From Geosiphon pyriformis uo1 (Eukaryota > Fungi > Glomeromycota): a stretch of DNA of 64,000 nucleotides. Positions 5,654 to 60,300 of this stretch are shown here, in pieces. The DNA lies in the NCBI GenBank assembly GCA_016748015.1, contig JAAOMT010000480.1, positions 372,001 to 436,000 on the forward strand. The letters are read 5' to 3'. Numbering within the stretch: the first letter of the stretch is position 1; each line of letters starts with the position of its first letter. Below the pieces are notes generated by a model that worked only from the letters and a program-made list of their open reading frames with translations, had not been told where the DNA came from and ran no database searches. The translations under genes were made by a program, and so were the position numbers.

Positions 5654-11981
<6,328 letters not shown>

Positions 11982-21282: not shown

Positions 21283-23751
21283 CTACAAATCTATTTTAAT
21301 AGACACTATACTATTAATACCAGAAAAAAAACAGCAAGATTTATAGAAACCAAAGCTAATGCCAAATGTTTTAGAAATCCCAAGCAATCTAACAACCTTA
21401 TTAGAAAACAGAAATAACAGACCAAAAATCCTGGAAAACACTAATTTATCATGCATAATTAATTTTCTCTTCTTTATAAATACTTTATATTTAGCTCTAA
21501 CTAATTATATATCAGTATAATAAACCACTTCAAAGCCCCAAACAAAATCAATAACTCATTTACTGACAGCTTTAACATTATCAAAAACAAACACAGTTTC
21601 TAAAAACCAATAATTAAACAAAAAACCCTTATACAGAATGGTATATAAAACATTATCAGAAGCACATAAAAAAAGCATCTGTAAGATCCAAAAAGATGAC
21701 AAGCTTAAACTCAACAAAGCATATCATTAAGACAAATATAATGCAAGCAGATTCTCATGAATTCCAAAATCTATTACATATACAAAAAAATGATTGGAAC
21801 TCTCTACTTCTTCACAATAAAGACACAATACACTAGGATAATTTTTATAATATAATTGTTTCCAAAAAATAACTGACAGATAATAGTACAGAGCCTTTAT
21901 AAAATACAATCACAAACCAACTGTAGACTTACTTGTAAATTTAGCTGTTATATAATAATTGAAGTGCCAAACCAAAACAGTGTGAATCCAATTTACATTA
22001 CCAATCAAGCTTTTATCAATAATACCAAAACCAAGACCAATCTCTCAACAAGCATGATGAACAATCCTAAAAATCTTCTGAACAAAATAGTGAATATTTC
22101 CTGACACTATTATACTGCCAGTTTTAATAAATCTATTTTTGACCAGAACAGAAAGCATTAAATTTGAATTAGCAGTCAAGCCAGCCAGCTTATCAGCATG
22201 CTTATTTTCCAAAACATCTAAATAACTCTTAACCTTGTATTAAAAAATGCAAAGCCTCTTTTTTCTAATAGTTTCTACAATACTGCACTATTCCATCCAA
22301 CAGCAAGTGTGAAAATCTGGTAAAACCAAAACCAACTCTACAACACAAACATTCAAGGCAGCCTAATTGTTCAAGTACACTACAACTAAACTGCTAGAAA
22401 AAACACACTCCAAAGCCAGAACAATAGTCTGTAAATTTTACTATTATAAAGAGCACTAACTTATTGACCTTAATGCTAATATCCAAATCCAAATTAAAGA
22501 AATATGCAGTTCTCCTATATTCTATTTCACACATACCCAAGTTCTTTAAAGACCCATTCATGTACATACTAATGACACTCAAACTAGCATTAAAGAGACT
22601 TTGTAACAACTCAAAAAAATCATCAGAATTATAAACATCCAAAGACTAGGAGCTAATATTACATGACTTAGCAAAAAGTAAAGACTTAATCAAGAATTCA
22701 CATATCAGGTAAAACCAGTAAAAAACCAGATCTCTTGGATTAAGTTTTTTCCAATAGCAGAAATTCTTCCAATCAAAGATCAGTTCTTTTTTGTCATATA
22801 GTTGGTTAATGAAAGCAATTTCAAATCTTATAAATAAATGTAAAACATCATAAAACACAGAATTTTTTAGAACAAAAGACATCAGAGTGCTGCCAAAAAA
22901 ATAAAATGCAAAAAAATGAATATTGTCAAGAGATATATTACAATTCAAAAAAATTTTCACTATACTAATCAAAAAGTTATTAACCAGACTAATCTTTAAT
23001 TTCATAGATTAAAACAAAGAATAAATGAGAAACCAACTCAGAACCTGCAAATTTAAAAACTGATAATCAAACAACTAATCAAGAATTCTCTTAACATTTA
23101 AAAAAACTAATACTAAAGCCATTTTATTCTTAGCCTATAGCTGTTCAAATATTTTTAAGTCATACAATGAAGAATAGTAAAAAGTCTCATTAAGAAAGTC
23201 TCTTGACAGACCAGCTTTTAACTTTAAATCTTTCTTAATCAGTGTGTTCTACTTAATACACATATTTTTAGAAACAAAACTAAACTAAGTTCTGTAACTG
23301 ATTATAAATTGTAGTACAGCCAAAACCAAATAAAGAAACTATTTGTCTAAGATAGTTTTTCTTAAAATTAGATTAACAAAAAACCTAACATCTGAATGAG
23401 CTTTGGACAAACTAGGTTTGGATAAGCTCTCAGAAGACAAAAAAATACTAAGATATCTATAAGACTCCTTTCTATGAGCAATAGAAATTGGCAAATCACT
23501 TATTGACAATAAAACATTCTTAACTTTTTAGTTAATAGAGATGGCAACAGTCTTTTTATTATTAACTGAAATATTATTGACCATAAAAAAACTACTAGCA
23601 ATATTTAAAATATATTAAGTGGCTGCTTAACTATTCTCAATTCAAATTATGTCATCAATAAAAGCATCAGCTACAAGAAATAATAACAAACCACTTAGGT
23701 TCTTTAGTCTGCCAGTTTTGGCAACAAATTTAGTATCAATATAATAATCAT
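21283..23751 (-). pseudogene. LINE-b ORF2, 3' part (end of RT, RNase H, zinc finger)
   Basis: Fragments 'YMNGSLKNLG' and 'CLYCEEVESSNHFF' are homologous to LINE-a ORF2; stop TAG at 21283-21285. Confidence 0.85.
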
Positions 23752-24729
23752 TGTTACCAGAGGTTTTTGGTCTCTTCTTAGCTCTTGTATGTTTATTGTA
23801 ATGCTGTTAATTCACGACTATGGGAAGTGTTTAAACCTCTGATAACTGAATTTATCTTCAAATTATCTCTTATAATTTGAACTGTTGGGCTTATAAGTGG
23901 AATGGCCAGTTCTATGCCAGTTGCTTTGTGTAGTTATGTTGTAGTAAACATCAACTCTTTCCCAGGAATTGCTCATCTGAAAGCTCACTAAAAATGTGTA
24001 GTTACTTTGCTGTAAAAGTCAACTCTTCTACAGGAATCTTGTTTGTAGGCTACCCTAATGATTGTAATAAGAAAATAAAAAATAAATAAAAGAAATGTAA
24101 AAGAAATAAAATTTTATCAAGGAAAATGTTTTCTATCCAGACCTGGAGTCACTAACAGTTTACTGAAATTGGTAGCTAATCAATTTCAAAACGTTAGTTA
24201 GATTTTGGGGATTTTTCGAGTACAATAATTAAAGAATTTGGTTTTTCAAATTATTTGATATTTATTTTTTTTTTGTGTATAGGAATAGTTCTAAGTGATA
24301 AATCTAAAGTAAGATACATTTTTTCGAAGAGAGAAGTTCTTCTTTTATACAACTTGTCATAACACTATTCTATAAACTTGAACTTTGCTCTTTTCTACAA
24401 TTTTGCTGAACTAAAGATACATTTTGGCGAATTACAAGTTATTTCTGCAAACTATTAGATATTTCGGTGAATTATTAATTATTTCTGCAAATTTTTACAA
24501 ATTTCAGCAAACTTTTGAATGTTACATATTTCAGGGTATTGCATGATTGATCATTGCACTTAGGTTACATTTGTGTTATGTACAAATTGAGTTATTAATT
24601 AAATGATAATTTCGGACATTTTGCTAATATAATAAGTGATAATTTAAAACAATAATATATGCTAATTAATGATAAGATTTATAAGAGTAATTTTATGCTA
24701 AACAATATCTCTAATTTTGTCTGGTAACA
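23752..24729 (-). repeat. Gypsy-A 3' LTR
   Basis: TG...CA ends with 10-bp inverted termini; ~95% identical to 32571-33549 over the part compared; adjacent PPT. Confidence 0.95.
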
Positions 24730-25417
24730 TAACCTCCTCCTCAAGACTGAGCTCCATTGAAGTCCAAGTACTATCTGTAATTTCCAGATAATAATCTAAA
24801 ATTATTAAAGAAATTTGGTCTGAAAATTGTTAAAATTTCAGTTCTGTGAGCTTTCCAATGTATTGAATCTTTAAAGGCTGTAAAATTGGGTTTTGTAAGA
24901 CATTTTCACAGGTGTGGAATAGGTCATAAAGTCTAAGGGCAGCTCTTAGTTTATAACAACTGTTTGTAAGTCCAGCTGTTGTCTTGAATTTGTTGTAGAG
25001 TTGTTTCCGAATAGCTTCTTTTGTGAGATTTGCTGCTGTAAGCTCCCGTTTTTGTTTGTGAAGTGTTTTTCCAATGTAGAAATATCTATATATTAGAGTA
25101 TAATTGTAGTTTTCTTCATTAAGACACAGTTGAAGTTTTTGTTAAATAGTAGCATTTGGTGGAATACTAATAGGAATAAGCATTAAGTTTTCTCTTAAAG
25201 CAAGTTTTAAAAGTTCTGGCAGATGAATTTCAGAATAACTTCTTGTGTTCTTCTTATATGGGTGATATTTTCGTGAATTTGGGGCTAAATTTGTAACTAT
25301 TTCTGTTTGGGTATAATTAATGTGGTTTCCAGTAACAGTAATAGATAATTTGGGTATTGTTTTTAAAGTTAACATTAGTTTTTGGGATAATTGTTGAATG
25401 TTTTGAGGAATAGTCAT
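24698..25417 (-). pseudogene. Gypsy-A ORF3, ~240 codons, unknown function, ends inside the 3' LTR
   Basis: Single frame MTIPQNIQ...YRYFYIGKTL...AALRLYDLF...IQYIGKL...ELSLEEEVMLPDKIRDIV* with two internal TAA (likely CAA>TAA); homologue in Gypsy-B2. Confidence 0.75.
24730..24742 (-). other. Polypurine tract (GAGGAGGAGGTTA)
   Basis: Immediately upstream of the 3' LTR on the minus strand. Confidence 0.85.
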
Positions 25418-25533
25418 TATAAGAGATTTGAAAATAAAAGAAAATTATTTTTAGTGTATGGGTTTTTATGTTATTTTTGCTTTGTTTTTGTGAGATTGTT
25501 TCTAAATTATAAGGAGATAACTATAAATTTAAG

Positions 25534-26918
25534 TTAAGTGTTCAAGTTGGGAGGTTGTTCAATAACAACTATTGGTTTTAAATTTTGGGGAATATCTTTG
25601 AGATTGATTAAAGGGGAATGTGTACCAATTTGTGAAATTAATGGTTCAGGATTGTGTCTGAAATTATAGTGTTTCAAACAATCTCCATGTACAACTTTTG
25701 CTAGGATTTTGTTATCAAGTCTTAGCTTGTATGATCCATTGTCTAGGACTTCATGAATAAAGAATGGTCTATCCCATTTATTTTCAAATTTTCCACTCCA
25801 TTGTTTTTCAGCTTTAGTTCTGTGTAAGAGAACTTTGTTTCCGATTTTAAATTCATTGGTAACTGGAGGCAATTTGTTGTTATGCCATTCTTTTTATTGA
25901 GCTTGGGAGTGTTTAATATGAGTGGCTGCTATTCATTGTTTTCCTTCCAATGTGCTAAGCAGAGTATAGGCTCTTCGTTGTAGTGTTTCCTGAAAGTTGT
26001 CTTTATTAATTGGTTGTACTGGATATGTTTCTATTGTAAAACTAATTGGTAACATTGCTGTCCTTCCATAGGTTAAATCAAATGATATGTGTTTTGTGGT
26101 ATCTTGTTTTAGTGTTCTATATGCTAGTAACACTGATGGAATAAAGAGATCTTATTCTTGCTCAAAATTGGTTAAGACTTTGGCTAATAATTCACACAAT
26201 GTTCTGTTGAAACATTCTACAAGTCTATTTGTTTGTGGATGGTAGGATGAAGATAATAGTCTTTTGACATTAAATCGTCCACAAATTTCTTGGATTAAAT
26301 TGTTCACAAAATGTGTTCTTTAATCAGATAAAAGTTCTATTGGGCATCCATGTCTACAAATAATGTCTTCGTAGATAAAATTTGTTACTGATTTTGCATC
26401 TGCTCATTGAATGGCTCTGGCTTCAGGCCATTTGATGAGATAGTCTACAGCTACTGCAATATAATGGTTTCTTGGTTTGTGATAAGTAGTGGTCTGACTA
26501 AATTAATACCAATTCGGTCAAAAGCCTGTCCAACTTTGATTGGGTTTAAAGGTTCTGTAGGGCAAGTTTCTTTTCTTTTTTGACAACTATTACAAGACTT
26601 AACGTATTCATGAATGTCTTTTCTCATTTGAGGCCAAAAGTAATATTCTAGTGTTCTCTGAGTGGTGTTGTCTTTTCCTAGGTGTGCTGATGAAGGATCT
26701 GAGTACATGTTATATAAAATGGTTTCTTTTTTATGTTCTTGTATTAATCTGAGTGGATTGTCTGAGTTTCTGAAGTTTTGATAATAAACTATGTTGTTGT
26801 GTAAGAAGTATTGTTTGGCTTGTTATTGTAACTGATGTTTTTTATCTGAGGACCAATCTGTTGGAATTGTTAATGTCTCCAAATATTGTTTAAGATTGTT
26901 ATAGTTTTCGGGGTTCAT
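25534..26918 (-). pseudogene. Gypsy-A integrase, separate ORF (HHCC, DDE core, GPY/F; no chromodomain)
   Basis: ATG at 26918 (MNPENYNNLKQYL); HLG...WPQM...CNSCQ; YHPQTN; WD(G)PFFIHEVLDNGSYKL. Confidence 0.88.
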
Positions 26919-26964
26919 TGTTTGTTGTTTTGTTGTTAATTCAAATGGGTGTTGGTTTTGTATT

Positions 26965-29900
26965 CTAATTTTGCCTTATTTTTGAGAGACAATCAATGTT
27001 GGTATGGAGTTTTCCTGGTTTGTGATGTACAATATATCAGTAGTTGGCTAAAAATCCTGTCCATCGGGTTTGTTTGACATTCAGCTAAGTGTTTTTATTT
27101 TGAAGTCATTTGAGTCCAATATTATCAGTGATAATGTCAAATTCTTTAGGCCTGAGATAAAGGTTGAAGTGATGTAAAGCCCAAATTATGGCTGCTGTTT
27201 CTAGTTTTGTGGCAGGGTAGTTTTTCTTAGCTGGTTTTAATGTTCTGCTAGCATAAGCAATTACTCGCTCATTTTTGTTGTCATCTAATTGTGATAAGAT
27301 AGTACCAAAGACAGTGTAAAAAGCGTCTATAGCTAGTCAAAATCAGTTACTGAAGTCTGAATAGGCAAGAATTGAAGCTGTTGTCAGCTTTTCTTTGAGA
27401 ATTTCAAAAGCCTTTTGGTGTTCTTCCATCCATTTGTATTTGACGTTTTTAGTAGTGAGCTGGTTGAGGGGTTTTGCAATTTTTAAGAATTCTTTAATAA
27501 ATTTTCAGTAATAGGATGCTAATCCAATAAATCCTCTTAATTCTGTGGTATTTCATGGAGTCTTGAAGTTTTTGACAGTGCTGATTTTTCCGGGGTCTGG
27601 TTTAATTCCATCTTTGCTAACAATGTGACCAAAAAAGGCCAAACTTGTTTTTCCGAAGTAGTATTTTTCGATGTTTAGTTTCAATCCGGCTTTCCATAAT
27701 CATTAAAAAACTTTGCGCAGGTGTTTTAAGTGTAATTCAAAAGATGGTGAATAAACATCAGTATCATCGAGATAGACAACTACTGATTTCCAAAGAAGGT
27801 TTTTGTAAACAACATCCATAAGTTTTTGGAATGTTGCTGGTGTATTGCATAATCTAAAAGGCATTACATTGAACTCATAATTTCCTCCTTGAGTGGTGAA
27901 TGCTGTTTTGGGGTGATCTTTGGGATCCATGGCAACTTGCCAGTATCCACTCTCTAAATTTAATGTCGAAAAGTATTTGGACTTCCCAAAAGCATCTAGC
28001 ATGTTATCAATTCAGGGAAGAGAGTAGGCATCTCCAATGGTGATACTATTGAGTTGTCGATAATCAACACAAAATCATATCTTTTTATTTTTCTTTTTAA
28101 CTAAGACCACAGGTGAAGTCCATGAACTCATTGATGATTGAATAAGCCCATTGTTGAGCATCCGTTGTATTTCTTCATGGATAAATTGGTGACTTTCTGG
28201 AGTAACTTAGTAGACTTGCTGTCGCCTTAGTTTGACATCTTCTGTATAGATTTGGTGTTAAACCAAATCAGTTTTTCCTAAGTCATTGTTGTTTTCGGCA
28301 AAGATATCAGCAAATTCTGCAATTAGCTCTTTGAGCTGGTTCTGTTGTTGTGGTTCAAGTTGTCCCATGTTGATTCAAGATAGTTTTTCCATGACAACAT
28401 GGTAGTTTTCAGAGCTGGGGTTTGGGTTGATTTTTGGTAGTGAATGTCCAATGATTTCTGAGAAATTGGAAACTATTTGGGATAGTTCTTGTTGAAAGAT
28501 GTTACTGTGAATGACTCCAATTTTTAAGTTATTTAATAAAATTATGGGATAATTGTTGGGATTGTAAAAAGTAACTTAGACTTTCTTTGTTCCTTCTGGA
28601 ATATAAATGTTTGGGATCAAGATATTATGTTCCAAGCAGACTTGTTTATTGGACTCAAAAATTTGTTGTGTGGTTGTTGGCTTTTCACAAGTGTAAATTT
28701 CAGGGTATTCTCCAAAGGGTGAAATAGTAATTGGTTGTAGAAGTCATAGAATCTGGTGAGATTCACTTTGTTCATTAAGAACTATGTTTACTGGAACTGT
28801 GAATTGTTCAATTGAACCAAAACTATTGGTTTCTCTTCTACTTTTTTCCAATTGTTTTTTTTGACTGACTAATTGTAAACCCGAAATGTTGATTAAAGGT
28901 AAATAAATAGCTTAAGCAATTTTTTTAGCATGTTTAATCTGAAAAAGTTTATCAGTTTCATTTTGTAACATGATTGTAATATCTCTTGTATATTCAGCAT
29001 CTATGATTCCTCCTCTAACATTGATTCCTTTGCTTGCCAATGATGATCGTAAAGTGATTTGGACCATTGCTCTTGGTAAGATTTTGAGGGCAATTTTGAG
29101 ATTAATTTTGGTAAGAGAATTTGGTTGAAGAACCAAAGTGTCTTTTTCTGGATATCATAAATTGTATCCAGCATCAATTTCATGTGCTTTTTCTGGTTTT
29201 ATTCCTTGTCCATTGTTGTTGAAGTATTTGAGTTGTGAAGCAGGTTGATTTTCGATGAGGTAGATGGGTGTTGTTTCAATTTTTTCTGTTGCTTCAAATT
29301 CTCTGAATTCAATTTCGTATTCATCACTTTTGCTGGACAATGGAATGCTAAGAGTATAGCATTTAGGACACTATTGTTCGTCACATGGCATTATACACTC
29401 CTCACATAATTTAATGTTCATTTGCTCTAATCATTGAATTTGGGTAGATATGACTTGTGATTTGGTGATATACTTCTACTTTATTTTCATAATCAAATCC
29501 AGCTAATTTCAATGTATATTCAATATATTCAGCTTCTTTCATTTGAAGGACATCTTCTTTGGTTCCTCTGTTAATTAAAACCATGGCAAGTTCATAGATT
29601 ATTTTGGCGTCATGGGAGTAGTGATAGAGTTTGCTGAGGGTGCTGTTGTATGCAGCATTAAAAAGTATTCCACATTTTACTTTTTCTGCAATAGAAAAAG
29701 CATATTGACAAGTTTGATCGTAGACTCTTTCTCTAAATGCAACATCAATCCAGTCACATTCATTGGGAAGCTGCTTTCCACAAGTAAGACAGGATGTTCC
29801 ATCCCATTTTCTGCTTCTTTTGATCAAGTGGCCCTATCATTCTCGATAGCAGGCCTTGCAATAGTAGCAGGTGTGACTTTCATATTCTTTTTTAGATAAA

Positions 29901-32524
29901 ATACAAGCTCTTATTGACGATAATTTCTTGTGGCAGTTCTTATATTTAAGAGGAATATAAGGATGTTGTTTCCTTGGCTCAATCTTTGAGTAAGGTATAT
30001 TCCATTCAGGGGTTTTGGGTTCAGAGTGTAGGGTAAAATGTTCTTGTTCAATTTCATTGGCCCAATTGGACATTAACCCAAGAGCCATGAATGTTTCGAT
30101 TATTGGTTTTTCTTCTTCTGGTTCGAATTCAAAAGCCAGGGCTTTTTCGGAGCGTTTGTTGAATATACCACAAGTGGCAGGTACTCGGACATGTTGTCCT
30201 TGGTAAGAGATTTGTAGTTTTTGGGTTTCCCAATCTAATTTTGCATTGGTTTTTTAAAGCCAGTCATTTTTAACAAAAGCTTGATACTAAGGAGCGTCCA
30301 TTACAAGAACTTTGACTGGAATGGTGATTCCATCAAGAGTGAATAGAAAATTGTCAATTTCTCTTACTGGAGTCTTTTTCATGCCATCAGCAGTGACAAT
30401 TACTGTTTGAGCTGGTCAGTCAACATTTTTTTTTAACTGTTGCATCAACTGGTAAGTAATAATACTTCCAGTAGATCCATTGTCTAGGATTAAGCAAATT
30501 GTTTTTTCTTCAACTTCAGCTTCAGTATACATAGCTGTGATTGTTTTCTGTTCATTTGCAGCAGCATTGCTGAGTAGAAATGGTGATTCATTGGCTTTGA
30601 ACTCGAAAGGAAAGATATCAGACAGATTGGCATTTTCAGCAATTCTGGCTGGTGGAATAATGGTGTGGTTATAAAAAGAATTTTGTTGTTGTGCTGTAGC
30701 TCTACCTTTCGAGAGTGCAGTATGGTGAAAATTCTGTTCTTCTGACATTGTTAAATAATTGGGTTGAGTGTAATAGTGGTTGGGTCTTAGTTGAGTGGGA
30801 TTTTGGAAAACCAATTGGTTGTTTGAACTGATTCTATTGTTGTTTACTTGGTATCAGTTTTGTGGTGTAAATTGATTTTGGGTAATCAATCTTCAAGCAG
30901 GTACTTGATAATGTTGTGTGGGTGGTTGTTGGTATTGCTGTTGGATTGGCTGTGGGGTGGGCTGATAATAATTATTTTAGTATTGGGGTCTTGGTGGATA
31001 GTAAGCCGGTGGTAGTGGTGGTTGGTAATAAGATTGTTGTGGCGAAGGGTAATGTTGATTATTCCTGTTTTGTTGGTCTCATTGTAGCTTTCTGCAATCT
31101 CTTTTCCAGTGGCCAGGGATTCCACAGTAATGGCAATTCTAAGGCTAGTTATTAGAAAGTGGTGCAAAGTTATTTTGATTTTGTCTTTGGGGTGGTTGAT
31201 ATCTTTGGGGTTGCTGTTGTTGTTGTTGGTTGGTGAAATAGTTTTCAACTTTCTTGGTTAATTGGTCAATTTTTTCTTCAGCTGCTGAGCTGGTTTCTCC
31301 AATAGCCAGATTAACAAGTTTGGTACGGTTGGCTTTTTTCATGGCCATTTCATAGTTTTTTGCCTGTTGAATAGCAGTAGCTAAATCTTCTGGTGCATGT
31401 GGGCAAACTTTCTTAATAAGTTTGTCTTTTAGTCCAGCAATAAATTGATCCAAGATTTGTGCATTGGAGTAGTATTCATTGGTTTCTAATTGCCAAATTC
31501 TTCTAAGCAGTTTGTTGAATTTCCCAAGATAAGTCATAACTGATTTACTTGGTTCTTGCTTGATATTTCAGAACTGATTTTGAAGGGTGATAGAAGTGTT
31601 ATTGTCAGTGAACTGTTCTAGAAAAGCAGTTTTGAATGCTTCCCAGTGTTCTGGTGAGGCTTCCAAGTTTTCAAATCATTCACCAGCTGTTCCTTGTAAG
31701 AAGTATGGAATTGCTTTTAACATTCTGGCAGCATTCCAACCATTTGCATCTCCTGCTTTTGAGATTTTGTCAAGCCATTTTTGAGGACTGGTTTCACTGT
31801 CTTCTCCTGTGAACTTAGGGATTTTTGTGATATATGTGGAGGCTATTTCTTTTTCATTTTCTGAGTCTTCTGTTTTTTGTTCTGATTTGGTCTCTTCACT
31901 TCAATTTTTTGCTAAGTAGTCAATAAGGTTTGTGCTGGTTAATATTGGTTTTTTTTGTTGAATAGGGCTTTTGGGTAACTGAAAATCTTTTATTCTTGAA
32001 AACCGAATAAGTGGTGAGCTTGGTGTTTGTAGTTGAGCAAGTGAAGCTAGAAATGGTGTGATTAAGAGTGGTAATTTAAAGCTGGTTCCTTGTTCTGAAG
32101 TTTGTAAATATTTGGCAGTGGTTTTAGGTGTATTGGGAGTAGTTCTGAGTTTTTGTTTTCTTTTTCATTTTCTTTTTTCTGTTTCCGATTCAAAACTAAG
32201 AGAAAATTTCTGTTCTACTGGATAATTCTCTTTACAATACTGAATGATATTGAAATTGAGTTCTTGGAAATATGTTTCAAGTGTTTAATTGTTAAAATCC
32301 TAAGTGTTTAGATGAGAGTGATGTACTAAGCTTTCATATAAGTTGTGTCTAACTTCTGAAATGTTGTAGTCTCTAAAAAGATAATTGTTGATGTGATTTT
32401 CAATGTACTGGTAAAGTGTTTTCTTAAATGTTTCAATTCTGTCTGGAATGTTAAATCTCTGCTTGCAGTGGGTGTAGATTGACTGATAATACTCTAGAGT
32501 TCTTGAATCTGTTTAAGTTGCCAC
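26965..32524 (-). pseudogene. Gypsy-A Gag-protease-Cys-rich-dUTPase-RT-RNase H polyprotein
   Basis: GTG at 32524; CHYCGIPGHWKRDC; LILDNGS; dUTPase motifs; TAFTT...VVYLDD; RNase H ending DCLSKIRQN* (TAG 26965-26967). Gag to protease is one frame. Confidence 0.88.
28810..29220 (-). pseudogene. dUTPase domain in Gypsy-A pol
   Basis: DAGYNL, RSSLA, GGIIDAEYT, KIA(Q), FGS motifs 1-5. Confidence 0.88.
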
Positions 32525-32556
32525 TTTTGAAGTTGTTGTTACTGTGTTATTTTTGT

Positions 32557-32568
32557 GGGAGAGCACCA
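32557..32568 (-). other. Primer-binding site TGGTGCTCTCCC
   Basis: Starts with TGG, 2 nt after the 5' LTR end. Confidence 0.8.
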
Positions 32569-32570
32569 AA

Positions 32571-33549
32571 TGTTACCAGAGGTTTTTGGTCTTTTCTTAG
32601 CTCTTGTATGTTTATTGTAATGCTGTTAATTCATGACTATGGGAAGTGTTTAAACCTCTGATAACTGAATTTATCTTCAAATTATCTCCTATAATTTGAA
32701 CTGCTGGGCTTATAAGTAGAATGGCCAGTTCTGTGCCAGTTGTTTTGTGTAGTTACGTTGTAGTAAACGTCAACTCTTTCCCAGAAATTGCTCGTTTGGA
32801 AGCTCACTAAAAATGTGTAGTTACTTTGCTGTAAAAGTCAACTCTTCTACAGAAATCTTGTCTGTAGGCTACCCTAATGATTGTAATAAGAAAAGAAAAG
32901 AAAAATAAAAGAAATGTAAAAGATATAGGATTTTATCAAGGGAAATGTTTTCTATCCAGGCCTGGAGTCACTAACAGTTTACTGAAATTGGTAGCTAATC
33001 AATTTCAAAACGTTAGTTGGGTTTTGGGGATTTTTTGAGTGCAATAATTAAAGAATTTGGTTTTTCAAATTATTTGATATTTATTTCTTTTTGTGTATGT
33101 AGGAATAGTTCTAAGTGATAAATCTAAAGTAAGATACATTTTCTCAAAAAGAGAAGCTTTTCTTTTATATAACTTGTCATAACACTATTCTATGAACTTG
33201 AACTTTGCTTTTTTCTACAATTTTGCTGAACTAAAGATACATTTCGGCAAATTACAAGTTATTTCTGCAAACTATTAGATATTTCGGTGAATTATCAATT
33301 ATTTTGGCAAATTTCTACAAATTTCGGTGAACTTTTGAATATTACATATTTCAGGGTATTGCATGATTGATCATTGCACTTAGGTTATATTTGTGTTATG
33401 TACAAATTGAATTATTAATTAAATGATAATTTCGGACATTTTGCTAATGTAATAAGTAATAATTTGAAACAATAATATATGCTAATTAATGATAAGATTT
33501 ATAAGGGTAATTTTATACTAAACAATATCTCTAATTTTGTCTGGTAACA
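32571..33549 (-). repeat. Gypsy-A 5' LTR
   Basis: Direct repeat of 23752-24729; followed on the minus strand by the PBS. Confidence 0.95.
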
Positions 33550-45597: not shown

Positions 45598-45699
45598 TTT
45601 TTTTGGTTTTTTTGTTACATATATTATGTTCTTATATACTCTTTTGGTCAATCAATTTGATGTATTTGAATCAATGATTATAATTAGTTACAAATCTCA

Positions 45700-47091: not shown

Positions 47092-48141
47092 TTGAAATGT
47101 TTTTAGATTTGTTTTATTCTCAACAAACCATCAAAATTTCTGTTTTTTTTTCTCTTTTTATAATGTATGATATATTTGAATAGTAAAAGTTCTATTTTCT
47201 ATTTTACATAGTGGTTATTTCCAAATTCTTGTTTTTGAATTGATGTCAATCCTTTATAATCAATGTATATGTCAAATTTTTGGCTTAAATATTTTTTCTA
47301 TTTTATGATTGTCCAATAAATAGCTAAGTGTTCTAGTGCTGGTATTCTATAATTCCTTTCAACTGGACTTAAACTTTAACTGGCATATATTACTGGATGT
47401 TTTTTTCCATCTGGTTTTTTCTGTGATAATACTGCTTCCAATGTTTGGTTTAATGCATTAGTAATAATAATAAATAATTTGTTGTAATCTAAATAGATTA
47501 ATACTAGTGCTTGGATAAGCTTTTTTTTTAGCATATTGAAAGCTTTTTGTTGAGTTTTTGTCTATTCATATTTTACATTTTTGGCTTAGAGCTAGTTAAG
47601 TGATTGAGCTATTTTTGAAAAATTCTGAATAAAGTGGCAATAGTATCCAACAAATCCTAAGAATGCTCGTAGTTCTATTAAGTTGGTGAGTATTAGAAAA
47701 TTTTTGACTATCTCAATTTTGTCTGAATCTGTTTTGATTCTATTTTTGCCTATGACATGTTCTAGAAATTTCAATTTCATTTTGCCAAAAAAGCACTTGA
47801 TTGTATTTAGTTTCAATCTTGCTCTTTTCAATCTCTTAAACACTTGTTGAAGATGATGCAAATAATTATCAAATGTTTTTGAGAACACATTGGTGTTATT
47901 CAAATATATAACTACTGATTTTCATAGCAGTCTGGTATAAACAATTTTCATAAGCCATTAAAATATGACTGGAGTGTTGATTAAGCCAAATGGCATAACT
48001 TTAAATTTAAAATTTTTTTCTTTGGTAGTGAATGTGGTTTTTTTTTTGTTAGTTGAATTTATGGCTACTTGTCAATAAACACTATTCAAGTCTAATGTGA
48101 AGAACTATTTCTTTTCTTCAAAAGCATTAAATAATTCCTGA

Positions 48142-49091
48142 TGTTACCGAAGATTTTTGGTTTCTTTTCTTAAATGTTGGTAATGTTGATTTGCTGTGAA
48201 TTCACGTTCTCAGGAAGTAGTTAAACCTCCAATAACTGAATTTATCTTCAAATTATCTCCTATAATTTGAACTGCTGGGCTTATAAGTGGAATGGCCAAT
48301 TCTGTGCCAGTTACTTTATGTAGTTATGTTGTAGTAAATGTCAACTCTTTCCCAAAGATTGCTTGTCTGGAAGCTCACTAAAATGTGTAGTTACTTTGCT
48401 GTGAAAGTCAACTCTTTTACAGAAATTTCATCTGTAGGCTACCTTAATGATTGTAATAAGAAAATACAAAAAAATAAAAGAAATGTAAAAGAAATAGGAT
48501 TTTATCAAGGGAAATGTTTTCTATCCAGGCCTGGAGTCACTAACAGTTTACTAAAATTGGTAGCTAATCAATTTTGAAATGTTAGTTGGGTTTTGGGGAT
48601 TTTCCAAGTACAATAATTAAAGAATTTGGTTTTTTTGAATTATTTGATATTTATTTCTTTTTGTGTGTGTAGAAATGATTCTAAGTGATAAATCTAAAGT
48701 AAGATACATTTTCTTGAAGAAAAAAGCTCTTCTTTTATACAACTTGTTGTAGTACTAGTCTATGAACTTGCACTTTTTCTCTTTGCTCAATTTTTGGTAA
48801 ATTAAAGATACATTTTGATAAACTACAAGTTATTTCACTGAACTATTGATTAATTTGGGTGAACTATTCATAATTTTGGCGAATTTTTGAATATTACAAA
48901 GTTCAAAGTATTGTGTAATTTGATCATCCTACTTTCTGTTATACTAATTAAATTATTTTGATTGAATCGTGATATGTGATAATTGATTAAATAATAAATG
49001 ATAATTTGAAATGATATTAATATACTAATTAATTATAGGAATTATAAGAGTAATTTCATGCTAATTAATAGCTAAAATTCTACTGATAACA
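48142..49091 (-). mobile_element. Solo LTR of the Gypsy-A family inserted in Gypsy-B2 RT; TSD CTGA
   Basis: Homologous to 23752-24729; CTGA at 48138-48141 and 49092-49095; RT reads DSYSIP(R)IQ|ELFNAF across it. Confidence 0.92.
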
Positions 49092-52000
49092 CTGAATTCA
49101 TGGAATAGAATAGCTGTCTTTACAAATTACACTATTAAGTTTTCTATAATCTACACAAAAACAAATTTTTTTATTCTTCTTATAAACTAGTAATGACAAC
49201 CATAAACTCATTAATAGTTGAATTAATCTATTATCTAATATTCTATTGATTTCTTGGCTGGCTAATAGCATTTGGTATGCTCTCTGTTTAATTGGCATTA
49301 TATTTCCAGTTTTGATCTGATACTGAATGATATCAGTTTGGCCAAATTTGTTTTTACTGGCAAAAATATCAGTAAACTTGTTAAATAACATTTTGAGTTG
49401 CATTTGTTGAAGTGGGTCTAAGTTTCCCAAATTTATTTGTTCCAATTGTTTTGGTTGGAGCAAATAACATTCTTTTTATTTGTATATTGTTTGTGATATA
49501 ATATCTACATATTCATACAGTTGTGAAAAATCTGAAATGGTTTTTGGTGGTTGGTCTTTAACTTTGGTGCTTAAATATCCAATAGTAATTCCTTTTGGTA
49601 TTTTAATAATCTCTTTCATTGTATTGTAGATAAAAATTTTGATGTGTTTAGGGCTTTTGACTGGTAAGTAAAAATTGGTGAGTTCAATTTTTCTTGATTT
49701 ACAAATTGTAGTTGCTACTTCGAAAATATGAGCTTGATCTTTTACTTTCCTTTCTATAATTAACATGTACTGGTCATATAATAGAATGGAAATTGATTAA
49801 TAGGTAAAGATAATTTCTTCTTTGTCAATAACTTTTTCTTCTGCCATATTAACTGATATGTTTATTCTATCTGTGAATCCAAATTCACTAATTCCTCTTG
49901 CTGTTATTTCTAATTCCTCTCTATTTCTCACTGATACTAGCTGAGTTATTTTAACCAGAAGTAGAAATATTGTTTGTGCTATTTTTTTATTTGGTTCAAT
50001 AATATATTTTTTTTCCAAGTCATTTTGTAGCATTGCAATAATATTTCTTATATATCCTGTGTCAATTATTTCTTTTCTTATATTGATTTTTTTTTTGCTA
50101 AACTATTCCTAAATACTAATTAAACTATTGTCATTGCTAGAATTTCTAGTACTACTTTCAGATCAATGTATATACACAAATGTGGTTCCAATTTAATGGC
50201 ATTTTTTTTAAAATATCTTAAATCAAACTCTGTATTAGTATTATGTATGTATTCTGATATAATATTTTCATCATTATTACTGGACCATTTTAGTTTCTGC
50301 TCTTTGAAAAGATCAGAAAGCACAATGTATTATTCAGGGTTATAATTGGAATTTAAATTGTTGTTATTGTTATTGCCATTTAAAATTAAGCCAGAACTAT
50401 TGTTTTTATTATTATCATTAGAGTTTGAATCAGAATTGAATTTCAATTCTGATTCTGATGCACAGCTGCTAATTGGTTTTTTTTTGGGATCATGTAGATT
50501 ATGTGTGATGGTGGATTGTAAATAAGATCATAATTATTACAATACTTGAAGTCATATGGTATTAAACAATAGTCACATAGTCAGGTGTTTAGCTCTTTTA
50601 AATGTTGTTTTTGCTCTTTTTGTGTAGATACCAAGTTTTAATAGTGTTTATGGAACTGCTCTGGATTATTTTCAATGTTGTTAAAGATGTTAAAAGTAAG
50701 GATATATTTTGGTTTGAGTAGTGAAAGTAAATTGTTTTTAATTTTTAGTAGTTTATTGGTCAAAGCACCTTTAATCTTGACACTTGTCATTCTCTATATC
50801 TTGTGTTTATTATGTGGGTATTTTTCTAAGCATTATAGTGCTCATTTTCAGGCATTGTTAATTAGAGTCTTTTTTTATATCCAATCATTGATTAGAATTA
50901 TGTACTAACATATTTTGTCATATTTTTCTTTGTTCAAGAATGTTGTTTCATATTTCTTTGTCAGAAAAAATTGTTCCATATGTAAAACAAGGCTCATTGT
51001 CCCATTTTTTTTGTTTTTTTGGTTGTCTAAAATGTTTTAAGATGTATAGATGGTAGTAATATTTGATAGTCATTGGTCATTTCTCATTGTTGTTACAATA
51101 TGCATCTATTGTTGACAATTTTTTGCTGCAATTGATGCAAATTAATTTTGGTCGATAATAGTTTGACTGATATTAAGTAGTAGTGCTGTATAGAGTATAT
51201 GTAAAGATAGTTATTTGGATTTTTTCTTTTTCTTTTTTTTTCTCTTTTTTTTTTTTCTTATGTAGGTATTGGTGGTAATTTATTGTGTTTTTCTTTGGCC
51301 CATGATATCTGATACATTTTCCAGGTAGATTTTTCTCTTTTTTCTTCTAACTTGATTAGTGGCTGTTTATTGGTGGTAGTCTTGAAATAACCACAAGTGG
51401 CTGGTACTCAAGTATATTAGCCATTTTGACTAAGTTGTAGCTCCTGGGTGTTTCAGTCAAATACTGTATTGGTTTTGAACAGCCAGTCATTACCAACAAG
51501 AGCTTAATACTGAATGGCTTTCATTACCAACATGTTAATGGACATAATAATGCTGTTAACTTCAAAAGAAAAGTTGTTGATTTCGTCAATTAGAGTTTTT
51601 GTTGCTTTATTAGCCATTATTATTTTGGTATTAGCAATACAATTCACTTGGTGACTTAATTGGTCTATAAGTTGCTTAGTAATAATACTGTTTGTTAAAC
51701 TGTTATCAAGAATTAGTTTAATAGGGTGGCCATCAACTTTTGTATCAGTATATATGATGGTAATTGGTTTGACATTAAGAATGGCTCTACTAAATAAGTG
51801 TGTTATTGTTGGCTCTTCAAGTTCAAAGAAAAAGATGGCTTCTAGTAATTTGTTTTCGGTAATGATGGCTGAAGGTATGTTATTGGTAAGTAGTTGAATT
51901 TGATTGGATTTCTGTTCACTGAGTTTGGTATCTTTTAGGATAACTAAAAGACTTAAATAATTCTAAGAATTTGGGTTTTGAGCATATTCAGTTTCTGAAT

Positions 52001-52937
52001 TCCACTGGTATAATTCTGATGATTGGTTTGAGAAACTAGAAATTAGTTGATGTATTACTATTGCCGATTTCCAGTTTTGTTGGATGTGTGTAATTTTCAG
52101 TCTTTGAGTTCTAGATAACATTTAAGCTAAATTTAGTAGTGGTGTTTGAATTGGTTTGGGTTGATAGATTATTTGCAACTGTAGCTAATATATTATGGGT
52201 GTTAGAGTTTGATATATTGGAAGTAAGTATATTGGTTGTTGTATCATTTATGAGTAATAAAGTTGATATTGATCTTAATTTGGAGAATAACTTGGAGTTT
52301 AAAACTAGTAATTGGGATTTCAATATTAATTTTCCAATTATGAGTTACCATTATAATAACAGTTAATTCTAATGTAACCTTATTTACTACAATTATGGCA
52401 GATACATGTTTTTGACTGCCATAGTTGATTGGTTGATGATAAAGAATGTGACTGATTTTAGAAATAATTTGAGTTTTCTTGATTATTTCATTATTGTAAA
52501 GATTAATAAATGGCCTAATTATTAGCTAAGTTTCCTTCCAATTTCTGATTGATTGAATCACTAAATTGTTTTAATTTGAACTCCAATTCAGATGATTCAT
52601 TCATTACTAAATTTACAGCTTGGATGTGGTTGGCTTCTAACTTTGCTAATTCAAAATCTTAGACATGTGTAACTGCATCTTAGAGTGTATTTGGATGTAT
52701 TAGACATACTCTCTGTAACAAGCTGCTGCACAATCTGTGGATGAACTGATTCAGAATCTGTGGTGCTGTAAAGTAGTCAGCTTTAATGGCTTGTATTTGG
52801 CACAGATTTTTGTGGAAGCATCCTAAGTAAGTAGTGACTATTTTAGTATTATCTTATTTGATTGTAGTGAAACTATCAGCTAGGCAGTTAATACTATTAT
52901 TATTACTAAAATGCTATAGAAACGTGGTTTTAAATAC

Positions 52938-55009
52938 TGTTACTTATAGAATATAGGAAATATATTAGCATATAAATTAACCAATCAGAAGTAGACATAG
53001 TAAATATAAAATTCCAGGATTCCTTTTAAGAAGAATTACAAGATTCCAGGAATTTCAGGATTCTCATATGAAAAATTGCAGAATTCCAGAATTTCAGGAT
53101 TTTTTTCAAGAGGAATTGTAGAATTCTTAATGTAAAGAATCAAGAAATTGAGGAATTTCAATTATGTATATATAACAGTAGTGTTAGAAGTAGAAAAAAC
53201 AAATTTTTTAGTTTAAATTTTATCTAAGCAATCTTCCACAAACACAAATATTAATAAAATAATTATTTACCATCTTCACTAAATTAACATTTAATGTTGA
53301 TAGTAATCTGTACTTAACTATATTGAAACAATAGCTTTTGATCATGGCTATTGACAGGATACTAACATGCAAATTGTTTTGGCTTACTTTTTTATATTTT
53401 GTATTTTTTTTTGTTTTATTTTCTTGTTTTGCTAACTTGATTAAAAGAATTCATATGTAAAGATACTAATGTCAGAATATAATACTGATAAAAGACCCAG
53501 AAATAAGAATAGACATTCAGAATTGAAAATATTTTACCAGAAGGATTACCAGCCATCATGCTAAGAAAAAAATTGACAAAACTGCAGTTTTGGGAAGCTA
53601 TAAATAAACAATCAATTGAATCTCTGTTCATTATACAAAGAACTTAACCAAAATCTTCAGATATAACAATCTTCAGAAACCAATATCCTTATACCAATTG
53701 AACATCAAGTTATGGGTTTGTTATTTGCTTTGAGACCCCAAATAATTATCTGTAACATTTGGTGCTTCCTATGAGGTATAATTCTAAAGAGAACTTGCAC
53801 TAACAACAATTATCCAAAAGTAACAGAATCAGAAATAATAGGGACAAACTATTTAGGATTTGTTAAATCTCTATTTCAACAGTACAGCCAACAATTGGGC
53901 TTAACCAACAACTATTATTTAGCAAAATTAGTCTTCAACTTTTACATCAACAAAAGAATCACAAATTTTTTGAGAAGACCAGTTAACATTGAATCAGCAA
54001 GAGAAAATTTCTATACAGAATTAATCCAACACATTAGCTTACTACAAAATTACAGTTTTACACCAATCATCAGAGAAATTAATCAAGAAATTGAAAGATA
54101 TACACAACAACAATTCCCCATTATCTATGCAAATAAAGGCAAAGGAAAGTTACAAACACTAGCAGCAACTCTAAAAGAAATACAATTACCAACATGAAAG
54201 AAACAAAAAATTAAATCTTCACTATATCCATTATATCATCACACACTCAGAAGTACCATCAATATCACATTAGCAGATGCATCTACATCAAACATGACAT
54301 CAACATTTGGATGACTATTATTTCAAAATAAACAAAAAAAAGCAGAATTATTAGGAACCTACAGCAATTACTTCGAAAAATTTAAATTGTGATTGCTAAT
54401 ACCATTAGAATTCCAATTACTACCATCTCCACCAGATTTCGGAACTGCAGGTCCTTGGGAGATAATGGCATCAAAAAAAAAGAAAAAAGAGGGTCAAGAA
54501 TTTAATTATCAATATCCAAATATAAAAAATCCAGAAGTGGAAACTCCAAATATTTAAACTCAGCAAACTCAAAACAATTCAAATCCCAAGTTAATTAATC
54601 AGCAAAACTTACCTCCAAAAATCATTATTAATCCACAACCAATTGATCCAATTGCTGAACAACTTCAACAGTTGTCAATACTACCTCAGCAATTACTACT
54701 TCAATCACCACAACAACCAAACTTAGATCCAATGGCCTACACCCCAATAGCAAAACTCAAAGAATTCACTGGCAAAGAGGATGATGCCCAAGTATGACTA
54801 AATGATATGGAAAAAGTCATCACAGCCAATAAATAAAATGATGTATAAACCATACAGACCATTCCATACTTCTTACAGGATACTACCAACTCATAGTATC
54901 AGAGCTTGGTTAACAAACCTCAAGATTTTAACATATTCAAGCTTGAGTTTTTGAGATATTTTAGCAATAATAACAGTATTAATTGCTTAGCCAATACATT
55001 CACTATCAT
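52938..55009 (+). mobile_element. Gypsy-C1: 5' LTR (52938-53757), PBS and partial gag; inserted in B2 gag, interrupted by C2
   Basis: TGTTACTTATAG...TGTAACA; PBS TGGTGCTTCCTATGAGG at 53760; gag up to ...LANTFTI. Confidence 0.88.
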
Positions 55010-56407
55010 TGTTACTTATAGAAATATAGAAAATATAGTAGCATGATTATTAGCCAATCAGAAGTAGACATAGTAAATGTGGAATTCCAGGATTTCTCTT
55101 AGGAATTGCAGGATTCTAGGAATTACAGGATTCTCACACAAAGAATTGCAGAATTGCAGAATTCCAAGATTCTTCTCAAAGAAATTGCAGAATTCCAAGA
55201 ATTCCAGGATTTCTGTCATGAAGAATCGAGGAATTGAGGAATCTCAATTATGTATATATAGTAGTAGCATTAGAAGCTGAAAAGGGAGATCCAGTTTAGA
55301 TTTAATCTAAGCAATCTTCCAGTTCCCAATTATTAAATAAATAATTATTTTATATCTCAATTCATTCTCCACTATCAACACTTCATGTTGATAGTAATTG
55401 ATACTTAACCATGCTGGAACAATAGCTCTTGATCACGGCTATTGATGGGATACTAACTTACCAAATTGTCTTGGCTTATTTTCATTATTGTTATTTTCTT
55501 TATTTTATTTATTTATTTCTTTGATTTTGTTGTGCATACTAATTGATTGAGAATTAAAAGTGCTGAGTTATTGACATCACAGATAGCCTGGTAAAAGACC
55601 CAGAAATAAGGGTAGATTTATATATATTATCAGTTAGCTTACCAGAAGAGCATGACTGCCATAATAAATCTGACCACCAAGCTGAGAAAGAAATTGGGAA
55701 ACAACTAACAACAAATGACAAATTGCCACACTATTGAATCTCTGTCCATTATACAAAGAACTCCATCAAAACCTTTAGATACAACACTTTCAGAATATCA
55801 TCGACGGAAATAGCTTTTGAGCACCAAGTTATGGGTTTGTTATTTGATTTGAGACCCCAAATATTCAATCATAACATTTGGTACTCCCTGTGAAATATAA
55901 TCCTACAGAGAACCAGCACCAACAACACCAAATCAAAAGTGGCAGAATCAGAAATAATAGAGACAAACCATTTAAGATTCGCAAAATTTTTATTTCAACA
56001 GTACAGCCAGCAGCTAGGCCTAAACAACAACTATTACCCAGCAGAATCAGCTTTCAATTTCTATGTCAATGAAAAAATTTTCTCTTTGTTAGAAACACCA
56101 GTGAATATTGAATCAGCAAGAGAAACTTTCTATAGAGAATTAATTCAAAACACCAACTTACCAACAAATCATAATTTTGCATCCATCATCACCAAAATCA
56201 ACAAAGAAATTGAACATCCCACCCAACAAAAATATCTAATTACATACACTAATAAAAGCAAAGAAAAACTACAAACACCAGCAGTAACACCCAGAAAGAT
56301 ACAACTATCTACTTAGAAGAAAAACAGAATTGAATCCCCAAGCAATCCATCTTACCATTATACACCCAGAAGTGCCATCAACATATCATCAACAGACACA
56401 TCCCCAT

Positions 56408-57370
56408 TGTTACCAGACGAAATTAGAGATATTATTTAGCATGAAATTATTTTATAATTCCTATCATTAATTAGCATATATTATCGTTTTAAATGATCAC
56501 TTATTATATTAGCAAAAATGTCCGAAATTATCATTTAATTAATAACCCAAATTGTACACAACACCAATGTAACCTAATTGCGATGATCAATCATGCAATA
56601 CCCTGAACTATGTAACATTCAAAAGGTTCGCCGAAATTTGTAGAAATTTGCCAAAATAATTGATAGTTCACCAAAATATCTAATAGTTTGCCGAAATGTA
56701 TCTTTAGTTCAGCGAAATTGTAGAAAATAGCAAAGTTCAAGTTCATAAAATAGTGTTATGACAAGTTGTATAAAAGAAGAGCTTCTCTCTTCGAGAAAAT
56801 GTATCTTACTTTAGATTTATTTCTTAAAACTGTTCCTATACACACAAAAAGAAATAAATATCAAATAATTCGAAAAACCAAATTCTTTAATTATTGTACT
56901 TGGAAAATCCCCAAAACCCAACTAACATTTCGAAATTGATTAGCTACCAATTTCAGTAAACTGTTAGTGACTCCAGGCCTGGATAGAAAACGTTTCCTTT
57001 GATAAGATCCTATTTCTTTTACACTTCTTTTATTTTTCTTTCTTTTCTTATTACAATCATTAGGGTAGTCTACAGACGAGATTCCTGTAGAAGAGTTGAC
57101 TTTCACAGCAAAGTAACTACACATTTTTTTTAGTGAGCTTCCAGACAAGCAATTCCTGGGAAAGAGTTGACATTTACTACAATGTAACTACATAAAGCAA
57201 CTGGCATGGAATTGGCCATTCCACTCATAAGCCCAGCAAGTTCAAATTATAGGAGATAATTTGAAGATAAATTCAGTTACTGGAGATTCAACCACATCCA
57301 GAAAACGTGAATTCACAGCAAATAAGTATCAACAACATTACAGAAAAGAGACCAAAAACCTCCGGTAATA
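56408..57370 (+). mobile_element. Solo LTR of the Gypsy-A family in C2 gag; TSD CCAT
   Basis: TGTTACCAGAC...CCGGTAATA; CCAT at 56404-56407 and 57371-57374; the gag frame is restored on removal. Confidence 0.92.
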
Positions 57371-60300
57371 CCATCAACTGCAACATTAACATTTGGATGA
57401 TTCTCATTCTAAAGTAGACAAAGGAAAACAGAATTATTAGGACCATACAGCAAATACTTTGAGGGATTTAATTCACGATCACCAATGTCATTAGGAATTT
57501 GATCACCACTGCCTCAACTGGACTTTGAAACCACTACTCCATGGAAACTATCTGAAGAAGAAAAGAAAGAAGAATCGGAAGATCAAAAATTTACTTACCA
57601 GAACCCAATTACTGAAAACCCAGAAGTTGAAACACCGAATTTTTAAACCCAGCAAAATTTAAATCTAGAAAATTCGGAAATCATCACTCCAAATTATCAA
57701 AGGCAGAACAATCTAAATCCCAAATTAATTAATCAGCAAAACTTACTTCCAGTAATCGTCATCGATCAACCACCAATTAATCCAATAGCCGAACCCATAC
57801 AGCTGCCACTTCAACTACTATCTCAACAACCAGCAGCACAACAATCACTTTAACAGTTACCACAACCACCCAATTTAGATCCAATGGCCTACACACCAAT
57901 CGCAAAACTTGACAATTTTACCAGCAAAGAAGACGACACTCAAGTATGGCTAAATAATGTAAAAAAAGCCATTGCAGCCAATGGATAGAATGACATCTGA
58001 GTCATGCAAGCCATTTCTTACTTTCTCAAGGATACCACCAATTTATGGTATCAGAGCTTGATTAATAAACCACAAGATTTTAATGTCTTCAAAGTGGAAT
58101 TCCTAAGATACTTCAGCAACAATAACAGTATCAATTGCCTAGTCAATATATTTACCACCATAAAACAAGAAGAAACTGAAGCAGTCACCACTTACCTGGG
58201 ATGCTTCCATCAAAATCTGCACCAAATTCAAGCAATTAACACCAACTATTTCACAGCACCACAAATCCTCAACCAGTTTATCTATGGCCTACACAGTAAC
58301 ATCTTGCAACATGTATGTTCGTTGCATCCAGGCACACTTCAAGATGCAATCACATGTGCCAGAGATTTTGAATCCACTAAGTCAGAAGCCAACCACACCC
58401 AAGCTGTTAATCTAGTAATAAACAGATCATCTGAATTGAATTCCAAATTGGAGAAGTTCAGTGAATCAATTAATAAGAGATTGGAAGAATACTTAGCTGA
58501 CAATTACGCTATTTATCAGCCTCCACAACAACGCAATAATTAAGAAAACTCTAATTGTGGCCAAAATCAACCACGTTTATCTTCATCGACCAATCAACAG
58601 TGACAACAAGAAACATGTATCTGCCACTATTGTGATAAATAAGGACATATTCAATTCAACTGCCACCAGTGTTTAAATAACCAATGATCAGAAAATCAAT
58701 ATCGAAATTCCAATCACCAGTTCTTAACTCCAAATTATCAATCAAACTCAACACAATATCAAACCACTTACCTACCAATGATGCAGCAACCAATCTATCA
58801 ACCACCAGTATATCAATCTCCAGTTTATCAAAACCCAACAATTTATTCACCACAGCCACAAGTAATCTATCAGCCACCTCAAGTGATCTATCAACTCCAA
58901 CCAATTCAAACACTGCCCCAAAACTCAGCTACTATGACATCAGGAAACCCAAGACCTAGAATTACTCAAAACAGGAGATTGGCAATAGTAGTTCACCAAC
59001 CAATCCCCAGTTCATCAAACCAGCAAATAGGATCTTGGCAGCAGAATTCGGGTACCAGTACCACCCAAAACCTGAATTCTTAACACTATTTAAGTCTCCT
59101 AGTTACCCCAGAAGATGCCACATCCAGTAACTTGGAATCTGACCAACAGACAACACTTACCAACAACATCCCACCAGCAACTGTTACCAATGATGGATCA
59201 TTAGCAGTTATCTTCCTTTTTGAACTTGAGAAGCCATCCCAATTACTGCTATTCAGTGGAGCCATCCTCGAAGAGAAACCCATTACAGTAATGTACACTA
59301 ATGTGAAAGTAGATGAACACTCTATCAAACTCATTCTTGATAATGGTTCAGCAGGCAGTATTATCACCAAGCAATTCATAGATCAATTAAGTTACCAAGT
59401 TGATCGAGCTGCCAGTGCTAGAATTATTACTGCAGATGGCACTACGAGAATGCTTATTGGCAAAATTGACAACTTCCCAATTGAAGTTAATAGTATTATC
59501 ACCCCCATTAAGGTCTTGGTGATGGAAGCAACTCAATACCAAGCACTAGTTAGTAATAATTGGCTAGTCAAAACCAACGCTGTGCTCAACTGGACCACAC
59601 AAGAACTCCAGCTCAGTTGAAATGGACAACACACATGAGTACTAGCCACGTGTAGTCACTTCAAGACCACCAACTCATTAGCACCACTAATCGACTTTGA
59701 AGAAAAGACAAAACCTACCTGAGAAGCCTACCAAGTCTTGTGGGCCAACCCAGACCACAACAAACTGCTGCTGATACTCTCATAAAACAACAACTTTAAG
59801 GAAAAGCAAAAAAAAAAAACTGACCTGGGAGATAGACAATTTGACCTGGACTGACAATAAACAGGAAGAACCATTGAGTTGGAAGTGGAAAGAAGAAAAG
59901 AGAAAAGGGAAAAAGAGGGAGAAAAAAAACACTCAAGCCAACAACACTTATATTCTATACACTTACGGTTAACAACAATCATTGACCTATTGCCGACCTA
60001 AACTAATATGCATTGATTGTGATAAGAAATTGTCATTAATGGGTACATGCTGTGGCAACAATGAAGAATATCAGACGGCAACCAAGTTCTATTGCCGCAC
60101 ATGCCTTGTCAAACGTTTTGGAAGACCAAAATGAGTGGAAAAATGAGATAATACACCATGTTTAGCCTGTGGAGAAAAAAATGTGGAATGACATTCCTGA
60201 GAGAGGAGGAACATGTGACATTTCCTGCCAATACACAATTCTTATTAGCGACTGGATCGAGAAAGGAACACTAATAGAAGCCATTTGGAGAAGAGCTGTA

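Follow-up and report, generated by a model that had tools for sequence, protein, structure and literature searches.

Central-dinucleotide bias at the target sites of nested Ty3/Gypsy elements in a repeat block of Geosiphon pyriformis

Insertions of retrotransposons with long terminal repeats (LTRs) in the stretch of Geosiphon pyriformis DNA considered here (64,000 nucleotides of contig JAAOMT010000480.1, the whole of which is called the window) are bordered by tetranucleotides that all carry a pyrimidine-purine (YR) step in the middle. The question arises whether this step is a remnant of a hidden N-CG-N target, similar to that of Ginger1 DNA transposons and erased by CpG deamination, as a preliminary description of this DNA had tentatively proposed, or whether it is chosen as such by the integrase. 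All seven 4-mers listed in that description do abut LTR ends, and these ends are genuine termini of Ty3/Gypsy LTR retrotransposons according to LTR alignments, primer-binding sites (PBS), polypurine tracts (PPT) and Pfam matches. The bias of their central dinucleotide is real and strong in what is an ordinary kind of element, and, as far as ten old sites allow one to judge, it is likely to be a target preference of the integrase rather than a decayed preference for methylated CpG. The elements, denoted A to G, and their flanks are as follows (TSD, target site duplication; RT, reverse transcriptase; LINE, long interspersed nuclear element).

23748 to 23751, unstranded: left TSD copy of A, TCAT, in a LINE remnant
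23752 to 33549, minus strand: element A, full-length degenerate Ty3/Gypsy of LTR family 1 with PBS and PPT, within a LINE
33550 to 33553, unstranded: right TSD copy of A, CCAT
39745 to 39748, unstranded: 5′ flank of G, GTGG; the other copy lies beyond the window
39749 to 44118, plus strand: element G, 5′ part, LTR family 2 (5′ LTR 39749-40608, PBS, gag, protease), broken by D
44115 to 44118, unstranded: ATGA, bordering D at its 3′ end, on a codon that was likely ACG ancestrally in the family
44119 to 52937, minus strand: element D, 3′ part (3′ LTR 44119-44947, PPT, integrase, RT, dUTPase, protease, partial gag), broken by B and E
48138 to 49095, minus strand: solo LTR B, family 1 (48142-49091), TSD CTGA/CTGA, within the RT of D on a Gln codon CAG
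52934 to 52937, unstranded: 5′ flank of E, ATAC, on a gag Ala codon GCN
52938 to 55009, plus strand: element E, 5′ part (5′ LTR 52938-53757, PBS, partial gag), broken by F
55006 to 55009, unstranded: 5′ flank of F, TCAT, at a Thr-Ile/Met codon junction with ancestral CA
55010 to 64000, plus strand: element F (5′ LTR 55010-55876, PBS, gag, protease, dUTPase, RT, integrase up to the window end)
56404 to 57374, plus strand: solo LTR C, family 1 (56408-57370), located in the F leader with TSD CCAT/CCAT
63154 to 63840, plus strand: N-terminal part of the integrase of F, comprising a YPYY-like motif, an H2C2 zinc finger and the beginning of the DDE core

Duplications and their central dinucleotide

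The insertions form a nest, in which G contains D, D contains B and E, E contains F, and F contains C; since G, D, E and F all continue beyond the window, four of the flanks are one-sided. LTRs of A, B and C make up family 1, and family 2 includes G. All three two-sided duplications are 4 bp long (TCAT/CCAT of A, with three of four bases the same, CTGA/CTGA of B and CCAT/CCAT of C), and none of them extends to a fifth base, in agreement with the length of 4 rather than 5 bp proposed earlier. As to the remaining sites, GTGG, ATAC and TCAT stand before 5′ LTRs that lead into a PBS, and ATGA adjoins the minus-strand 3′ LTR of D, the other side of which carries the PPT.

Six of the seven centres are CA/TG and one is TA. 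Relative to the composition of positions 13800-64000 (YR 0.23; CA, TG and CG together 0.138), the probability of seven YR centres out of seven is 3.4e-5 and that of at least six CA/TG/CG centres is 4.3e-5, both estimates being post hoc. Out-of-sample material was provided by contigs aligned to solo LTR C (15149 from run X1 and 4 from X2); runs X2 and X3 contained almost none of the sequence words looked for. In the rows listed (11 out of 409 for loose ends, 12 out of 18 for letters) an LTR end borders on non-element DNA three times, with the one-sided flanks CCGT before the 5′ end and, behind the 3′ end, ATGA and GCAT, so that three of three are centred on CG/TG/CA (P = 0.003). Run X1 may stem from the sample of the window itself, and the three flanks represent separate insertions, not a separate genome. 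Window and contig sites together span two LTR families and show a central YR in 10/10 cases and CA/TG/CG in 9/10. Because C-to-T and G-to-A changes preserve the class of pyrimidine or purine, decay did not create the YR pattern.

Four additional TGTTA...TAACA pairs with a 4-bp repeat lie in AT-rich or coding DNA; they were taken as chance and left uncounted. No convincing LTR-junction peptide was seen in 120 Gag paralogues, searches of viral contigs by integrase, LTR/PBS pattern and alignment gave no match, and two loci from a metagenome pattern scan were dropped, as neither resembles the window.

CpG decay and the state of the targets before insertion

Deamination of CpG, invoked earlier, is well visible as a loss specific for transposable elements (TEs), the observed-to-expected ratio of CpG being 0.93 in genes vs 0.18 in the TE block, while as the source of the TSD centres it finds little room in the data given below. 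The two LTRs of A (23752-24729 and 32571-33549) are 94.4% identical, and 51 of their 55 differences are transitions, many of them outside CpG. CpG was retained in both copies in 3 columns, lost in one copy in 9 and lost in opposite directions in 1, which corresponds to a loss of ~0.49 per LTR copy since A inserted. The share of LTR CA/TG that is detectably ex-CpG amounts to 12-21%. Ex-CpG columns of solo LTR B (23) read TG in 13 cases, CA in 4 and CG in 3, and those of solo LTR C (24) read CA in 7, TG in 4 and CG in 11; the loss in B, mostly to TG on one strand, hints at strand-biased, processive deamination. Methylation is probably the cause of CpG decay in these repeats. Methylation of TE CpGs was reported for Rhizophagus (10.1101/2021.03.30.436303) and repeat-induced point mutation was reported as absent in related fungi.

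If all targets had been CG, both copies of a duplication would read alike with a chance of 0.12 for A, 0.35 for B and 0.11 for C (product ~0.005), as computed from the LTRs' own ex-CpG columns under the assumption that the copies decay independently. The CG/TG/CA discordance expected from post-insertion decay is absent in all two-sided TSDs.

Paralogues of the interrupted sequences allowed some of the targets to be read as they were before insertion. At site F (55006), which lies across gag codons 53-54, codon 54 is Ile in 80, Met in 37, Leu in 2 and Val in none of the 119 paralogues counted out of 120; since it is Ile, Met or Leu but never Val, the base in question was A before insertion. Nearby codons 46 and 48 vary as R/C/H and A/V/T, as genuine CpGs do. 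At site C (56404) all eight empty-site contig alleles have CA (ACAA, four ACAT, TCAT and two CCAT; a ninth, more diverged row was left uncounted), and so do two of two window paralogues, while the bases 5 bp upstream vary as GCGCG, GTGTG and GTGCA. At site B (48138) CAG is found in both D and F; RT homologues with Asp at this point (107/120) are too distant to fix the site. Most likely, then, the integrase met CA at 48138, 55006 and 56404, as had been suspected already for the first two. Site A, whose homologous LINE copy reads GTAG and is uninformative, was probably CA/TG, and site G is without a homologue.

Two sites have a different background. At site D (44115) the confirmed contrast of ATGA with ACAA and ATAA in paralogues makes ACG the likely family codon, just as was proposed, and this ACG may have decayed before D arrived. 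At site E (52934) 56 out of 106 aligned paralogues have an Ala codon; since this is a GCN codon, its TA derives from CA or CG, and variants GTC, ATG, ATA and GTA are compatible with GCG. Sites D and E may therefore once have been CG, and one contig flank, CCGT, still is. Such a share, with one ex-CG site and a possible second among the five sites open to testing, needs no preference for CG, though it is compatible with one, because 12-21% of LTR CA/TG descend from CpG in any case.

Shape of the site and its possible causes

When turned to the C-R orientation, the ten sites read CCAT/TCAT, TCAG, CCAT, CCAC, TCAT, GTAT, TCAT, CCGT, TCAT and GCAT; in the sense of the element six of them are C-R and four are Y-G. 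Of the eight centred on CA, six have a terminal T (background 0.235, P 0.003, post hoc) and none starts with A (P 0.05). TA, which accounts for 40% of the YR steps of the TE block, occupies only one of ten sites (P 0.047), and all three contig flanks conform to NCRT (background 0.033). Based on these data we consider it rather probable that the integrase has an asymmetric target preference near B-C-R-T / A-Y-G-V with CA/TG or CG in the centre, both the exact motif and its attribution to the integrase being read from the pattern of sites. In this model Ty3/Gypsy integrase would cut the target with a 4-base stagger and read its sequence, the intasome would engage the asymmetric site in either orientation, and CA would be accepted directly as the centre, CG being accepted too. 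CpGs in repeats would then be lost via C-to-T changes after insertion, probably driven by methylation, and CG centres would be rare now because of this loss.

Several points weigh against this model. The ten sites belong to only two LTR families and all are old and mutated; each of the three flanks from contigs is one-sided, and all were taken from the listed part of the rows. Sites B (TCAG) and G (CCAC) are without the final T, and apart from the central step the motif was drawn up once the data had been inspected. Five of the eight empty alleles of site C were called CA partly via a joint call, which leaves three free reads. D is likely and E possibly ex-CG, and G and two contig flanks may or may not have been CG, so CG could outrank CA. 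Finally, B-CG-T in window paralogues decayed to CA 18 times and to TG 11 times (non-independent counts, a mild lean), and this somewhat more frequent decay to CA weakens the argument from direction.

A play of chance or misplaced LTR boundaries might be thought of, since the pattern was spotted post hoc in seven sites, but LTR alignments together with PBS/PPT and two TSD pairs without a mismatch fix the boundaries, and the out-of-sample flanks fit as well, which makes this explanation extremely improbable. It is quite unlikely, too, that only a generic bending bias operates, any flexible central YR being used with no reading of bases and the CAT look arising as small-sample noise. A central YR is indeed general among 4-bp retroviral integrases, as was stated earlier, and the closest solved integrases are those of Ty3 and prototype foamy virus (PFV), but the retroviral effect is weak: central YR is raised only 63% above a base rate of 22% (PMC4422553), and at the resulting expectation of 0.36 ten YR centres out of ten have P 4e-5. 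TA, which should be welcome under such a mechanism, is under-used. A genome-contig scan gave 22 loci in records of metagenome-assembled genomes (MAGs), 4 of them with clean TSDs, which serve as the control, and the rest incomplete or ambiguous; no genomic flank was obtained for the closest loci, L003, L004 and L018. The four intact distant Gypsy relatives have 4-bp TSDs CATA, GATC, AAAG and GATT, none with a central YR; the pattern thus does not follow from a 4-bp stagger by itself. Thus, the bias is far above the generic retroviral one and is absent in 4/4 distant 4-bp Gypsy relatives.

Of the explanations based on CpG, the strict one, in which every target was a (methyl-)CpG deaminated later and CpG targeting drives nesting, agrees with the TE-specific depletion, with the loss of about half of the CpGs per LTR copy and with the methylation reported in Rhizophagus. 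It requires, however, like decay of both TSD copies at A, B and C and conflicts with the CA found at F and C in paralogues; at least three sites were most likely CA when hit. This form is largely refuted and can hardly be believed. A milder form, in which CCGT/CCGG-like sites rank first as in Ginger1, CCAT/TCAT serve as near matches because CpG is scarce and many CA/TG sites were once CG, is a rather unlikely reading. It is favoured by the intact CCGT flank, by the likely former ACG at site D, by the codon of site E and by a YPYY-like motif of the kind described for Ginger1-type integrases. However, one CG in ten sites is no excess (P 0.26 at the present share of 3% and 0.89 at the genes' share of 20%), B, C and F were CA, the ex-CpG fraction among LTR CA/TG is considerable regardless of any targeting, and a GCGCG run 5 bp from site C went unused. 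A still more elaborate scenario, in which a Glomeromycotina Gypsy with a YPYY integrase keeps a Ginger1-like CCRT/CCGT code, favours CpG together with its CpA/TpG scars, homes on old silenced repeats and thereby builds LTR nests, appears distinctly doubtful.

Known systems and composition of the locus

Pfam matches follow along F and A in the order gag, protease, RT, integrase, as is characteristic of Ty3/Gypsy. Direct LTRs with TG...CA ends are accompanied by PBS and PPT, three copies beginning with TA via a G-to-A change. The best solved match of the integrase is Ty3-G Gag-Pol (E 4e-40), followed by PFV integrase (E 4e-31). The C-terminus of the integrase of A is a degenerate GPY/F-like stretch without a chromodomain, and Pfam gave for this tail a weak SH3_Tf2-1 match and no Chromo, unlike what is expected of chromoviruses. 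Identity with Ginger1 is ruled out by RT, gag and inverted ends of only 6-7 bp; neither the integrase tail of A nor the downstream open reading frames (ORFs) has a Pfam match to OTU or Ulp1. Four columns upstream of the zinc finger are conserved in 120 homologues (Y/F 86/98, P 68/78, F/Y 98/103, Y/F 101/105). Such a motif is also ascribed to Gypsy-1-I_RO, which we take to be a Rhizopus oryzae element. Compared with the text description of YPYY, which is common to Ginger1 and some Gypsy elements including this one (PMC2836005), the conserved columns appear to fit, and the Ginger1 link may go beyond resemblance.

Ginger1 has terminal inverted repeats (TIRs) of 40-270 bp and TSDs of CCGG (75%) or CCGT/ACGG (24%) (PMC2836005). 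The window elements share with it a 4-bp TSD, TGTNR-type ends (here TGTTA) and an integrase in which H2C2, DDE, GPY/F-like and, apparently, YPYY-like parts occur, and its target CCGT is one transition away from CCAT. Unlike Ginger1, they have direct LTRs of 820-979 bp, gag, RT, PBS and PPT in place of such TIRs, and only 1/10 sites is CCGG/CCGT vs 99%. The likeness noticed earlier is upheld by the CCGT flank and the YPYY-like integrase. GingerRoot, with 6-bp GC-rich TSDs, is not close to these elements (PMC6839031). The 4-bp TSD and central YR are also found with PFV and Moloney murine leukaemia virus intasomes, but there the bias is weak (~36% of sites), and T in the first and A in the last TSD position are disfavoured (PMC4422553); here T at position 1 is common, possibly owing to C-to-T decay.

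In Drosophila, Gypsy elements as a rule have 4-bp motifs particular to the family, gypsy using TATA/TRYA, Idefix and 412 ATAT, and ZAM/Tirant CGCG (PMC3276498, PMC5408687). The elements described here resemble them in the order gag-protease-RT-RNase H-integrase, TG...CA LTRs, PBS, PPT, 4-bp TSD and a motif of their own, but differ in the Glomeromycotina host, in the dUTPase between protease and RT and in the asymmetric CA/CG-centred site of CAT/ATG type, which matches none of the motifs listed. No literature on target sites of Glomeromycotina LTR elements was found within a coverage that lacked most subscription papers and Repbase, and a paper on fungal LTR elements (PMC3248453) has no mention of 'target site' or 'TSD'. 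A strong CA/CG-centred motif would add a fungus to the examples of Gypsy integrases that read sequence and, if CG were truly favoured, would link a Gypsy lineage with the target code of Ginger1; in practice a 4-bp TSD is the rule for calling element ends. The gain is modest, because 4-bp motifs particular to a clade are a familiar feature of Gypsy.

The window has a GC content of 31%, with host genes at 1-12 kb and the repeat block from ~13.8 kb onward. All seven window insertions fall inside this block, but such clustering might result from chromatin or from purifying selection in genes as readily as from sequence, and targeting of methyl-CpG, proposed as the reason for nesting, is not needed. 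LTR elements constitute 41% of the G. pyriformis genome (PMC11952901), and for the Gag fragment the best 120 of its 168 relatives are all assigned to this species, with identity up to 86%.

Host genes beside the repeat block (1500-12000, minus strand) code for an ARID-domain protein and for a Mit1-like remodeller of PHD/chromo/SNF2 type. Two degenerate LINE copies (13816-20528, 23101-23750, 33551-37663) retain endonuclease and RNase H remnants, and element A sits inside the second. In G an RT/RNase H fragment stands out of order in the post-protease region (43807-44066). The dUTPase occupies the place between protease and RT in both F and D (60629-61819). Both LTR families share a PBS beginning TGGTGCT (40609, 53758, 55877, 32551-32570), which presumably resembles the 3′ end of elongator tRNA-Met. 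An extra ORF between integrase and 3′ LTR occurs in A (24830-25444, minus strand), D (~45000-45800, minus strand) and relative L003 (L003:2613-3053, 146 aa); it has no Pfam match above cut-off, and pairwise comparison of A with L003 gave no significant match. Loci L005, L009, L010, L011, L003 and L018 are intact or partial eukaryotic Gypsy elements in bacterial MAG records, likely as host contamination, and L003 is a head-to-tail tandem with one shared LTR.

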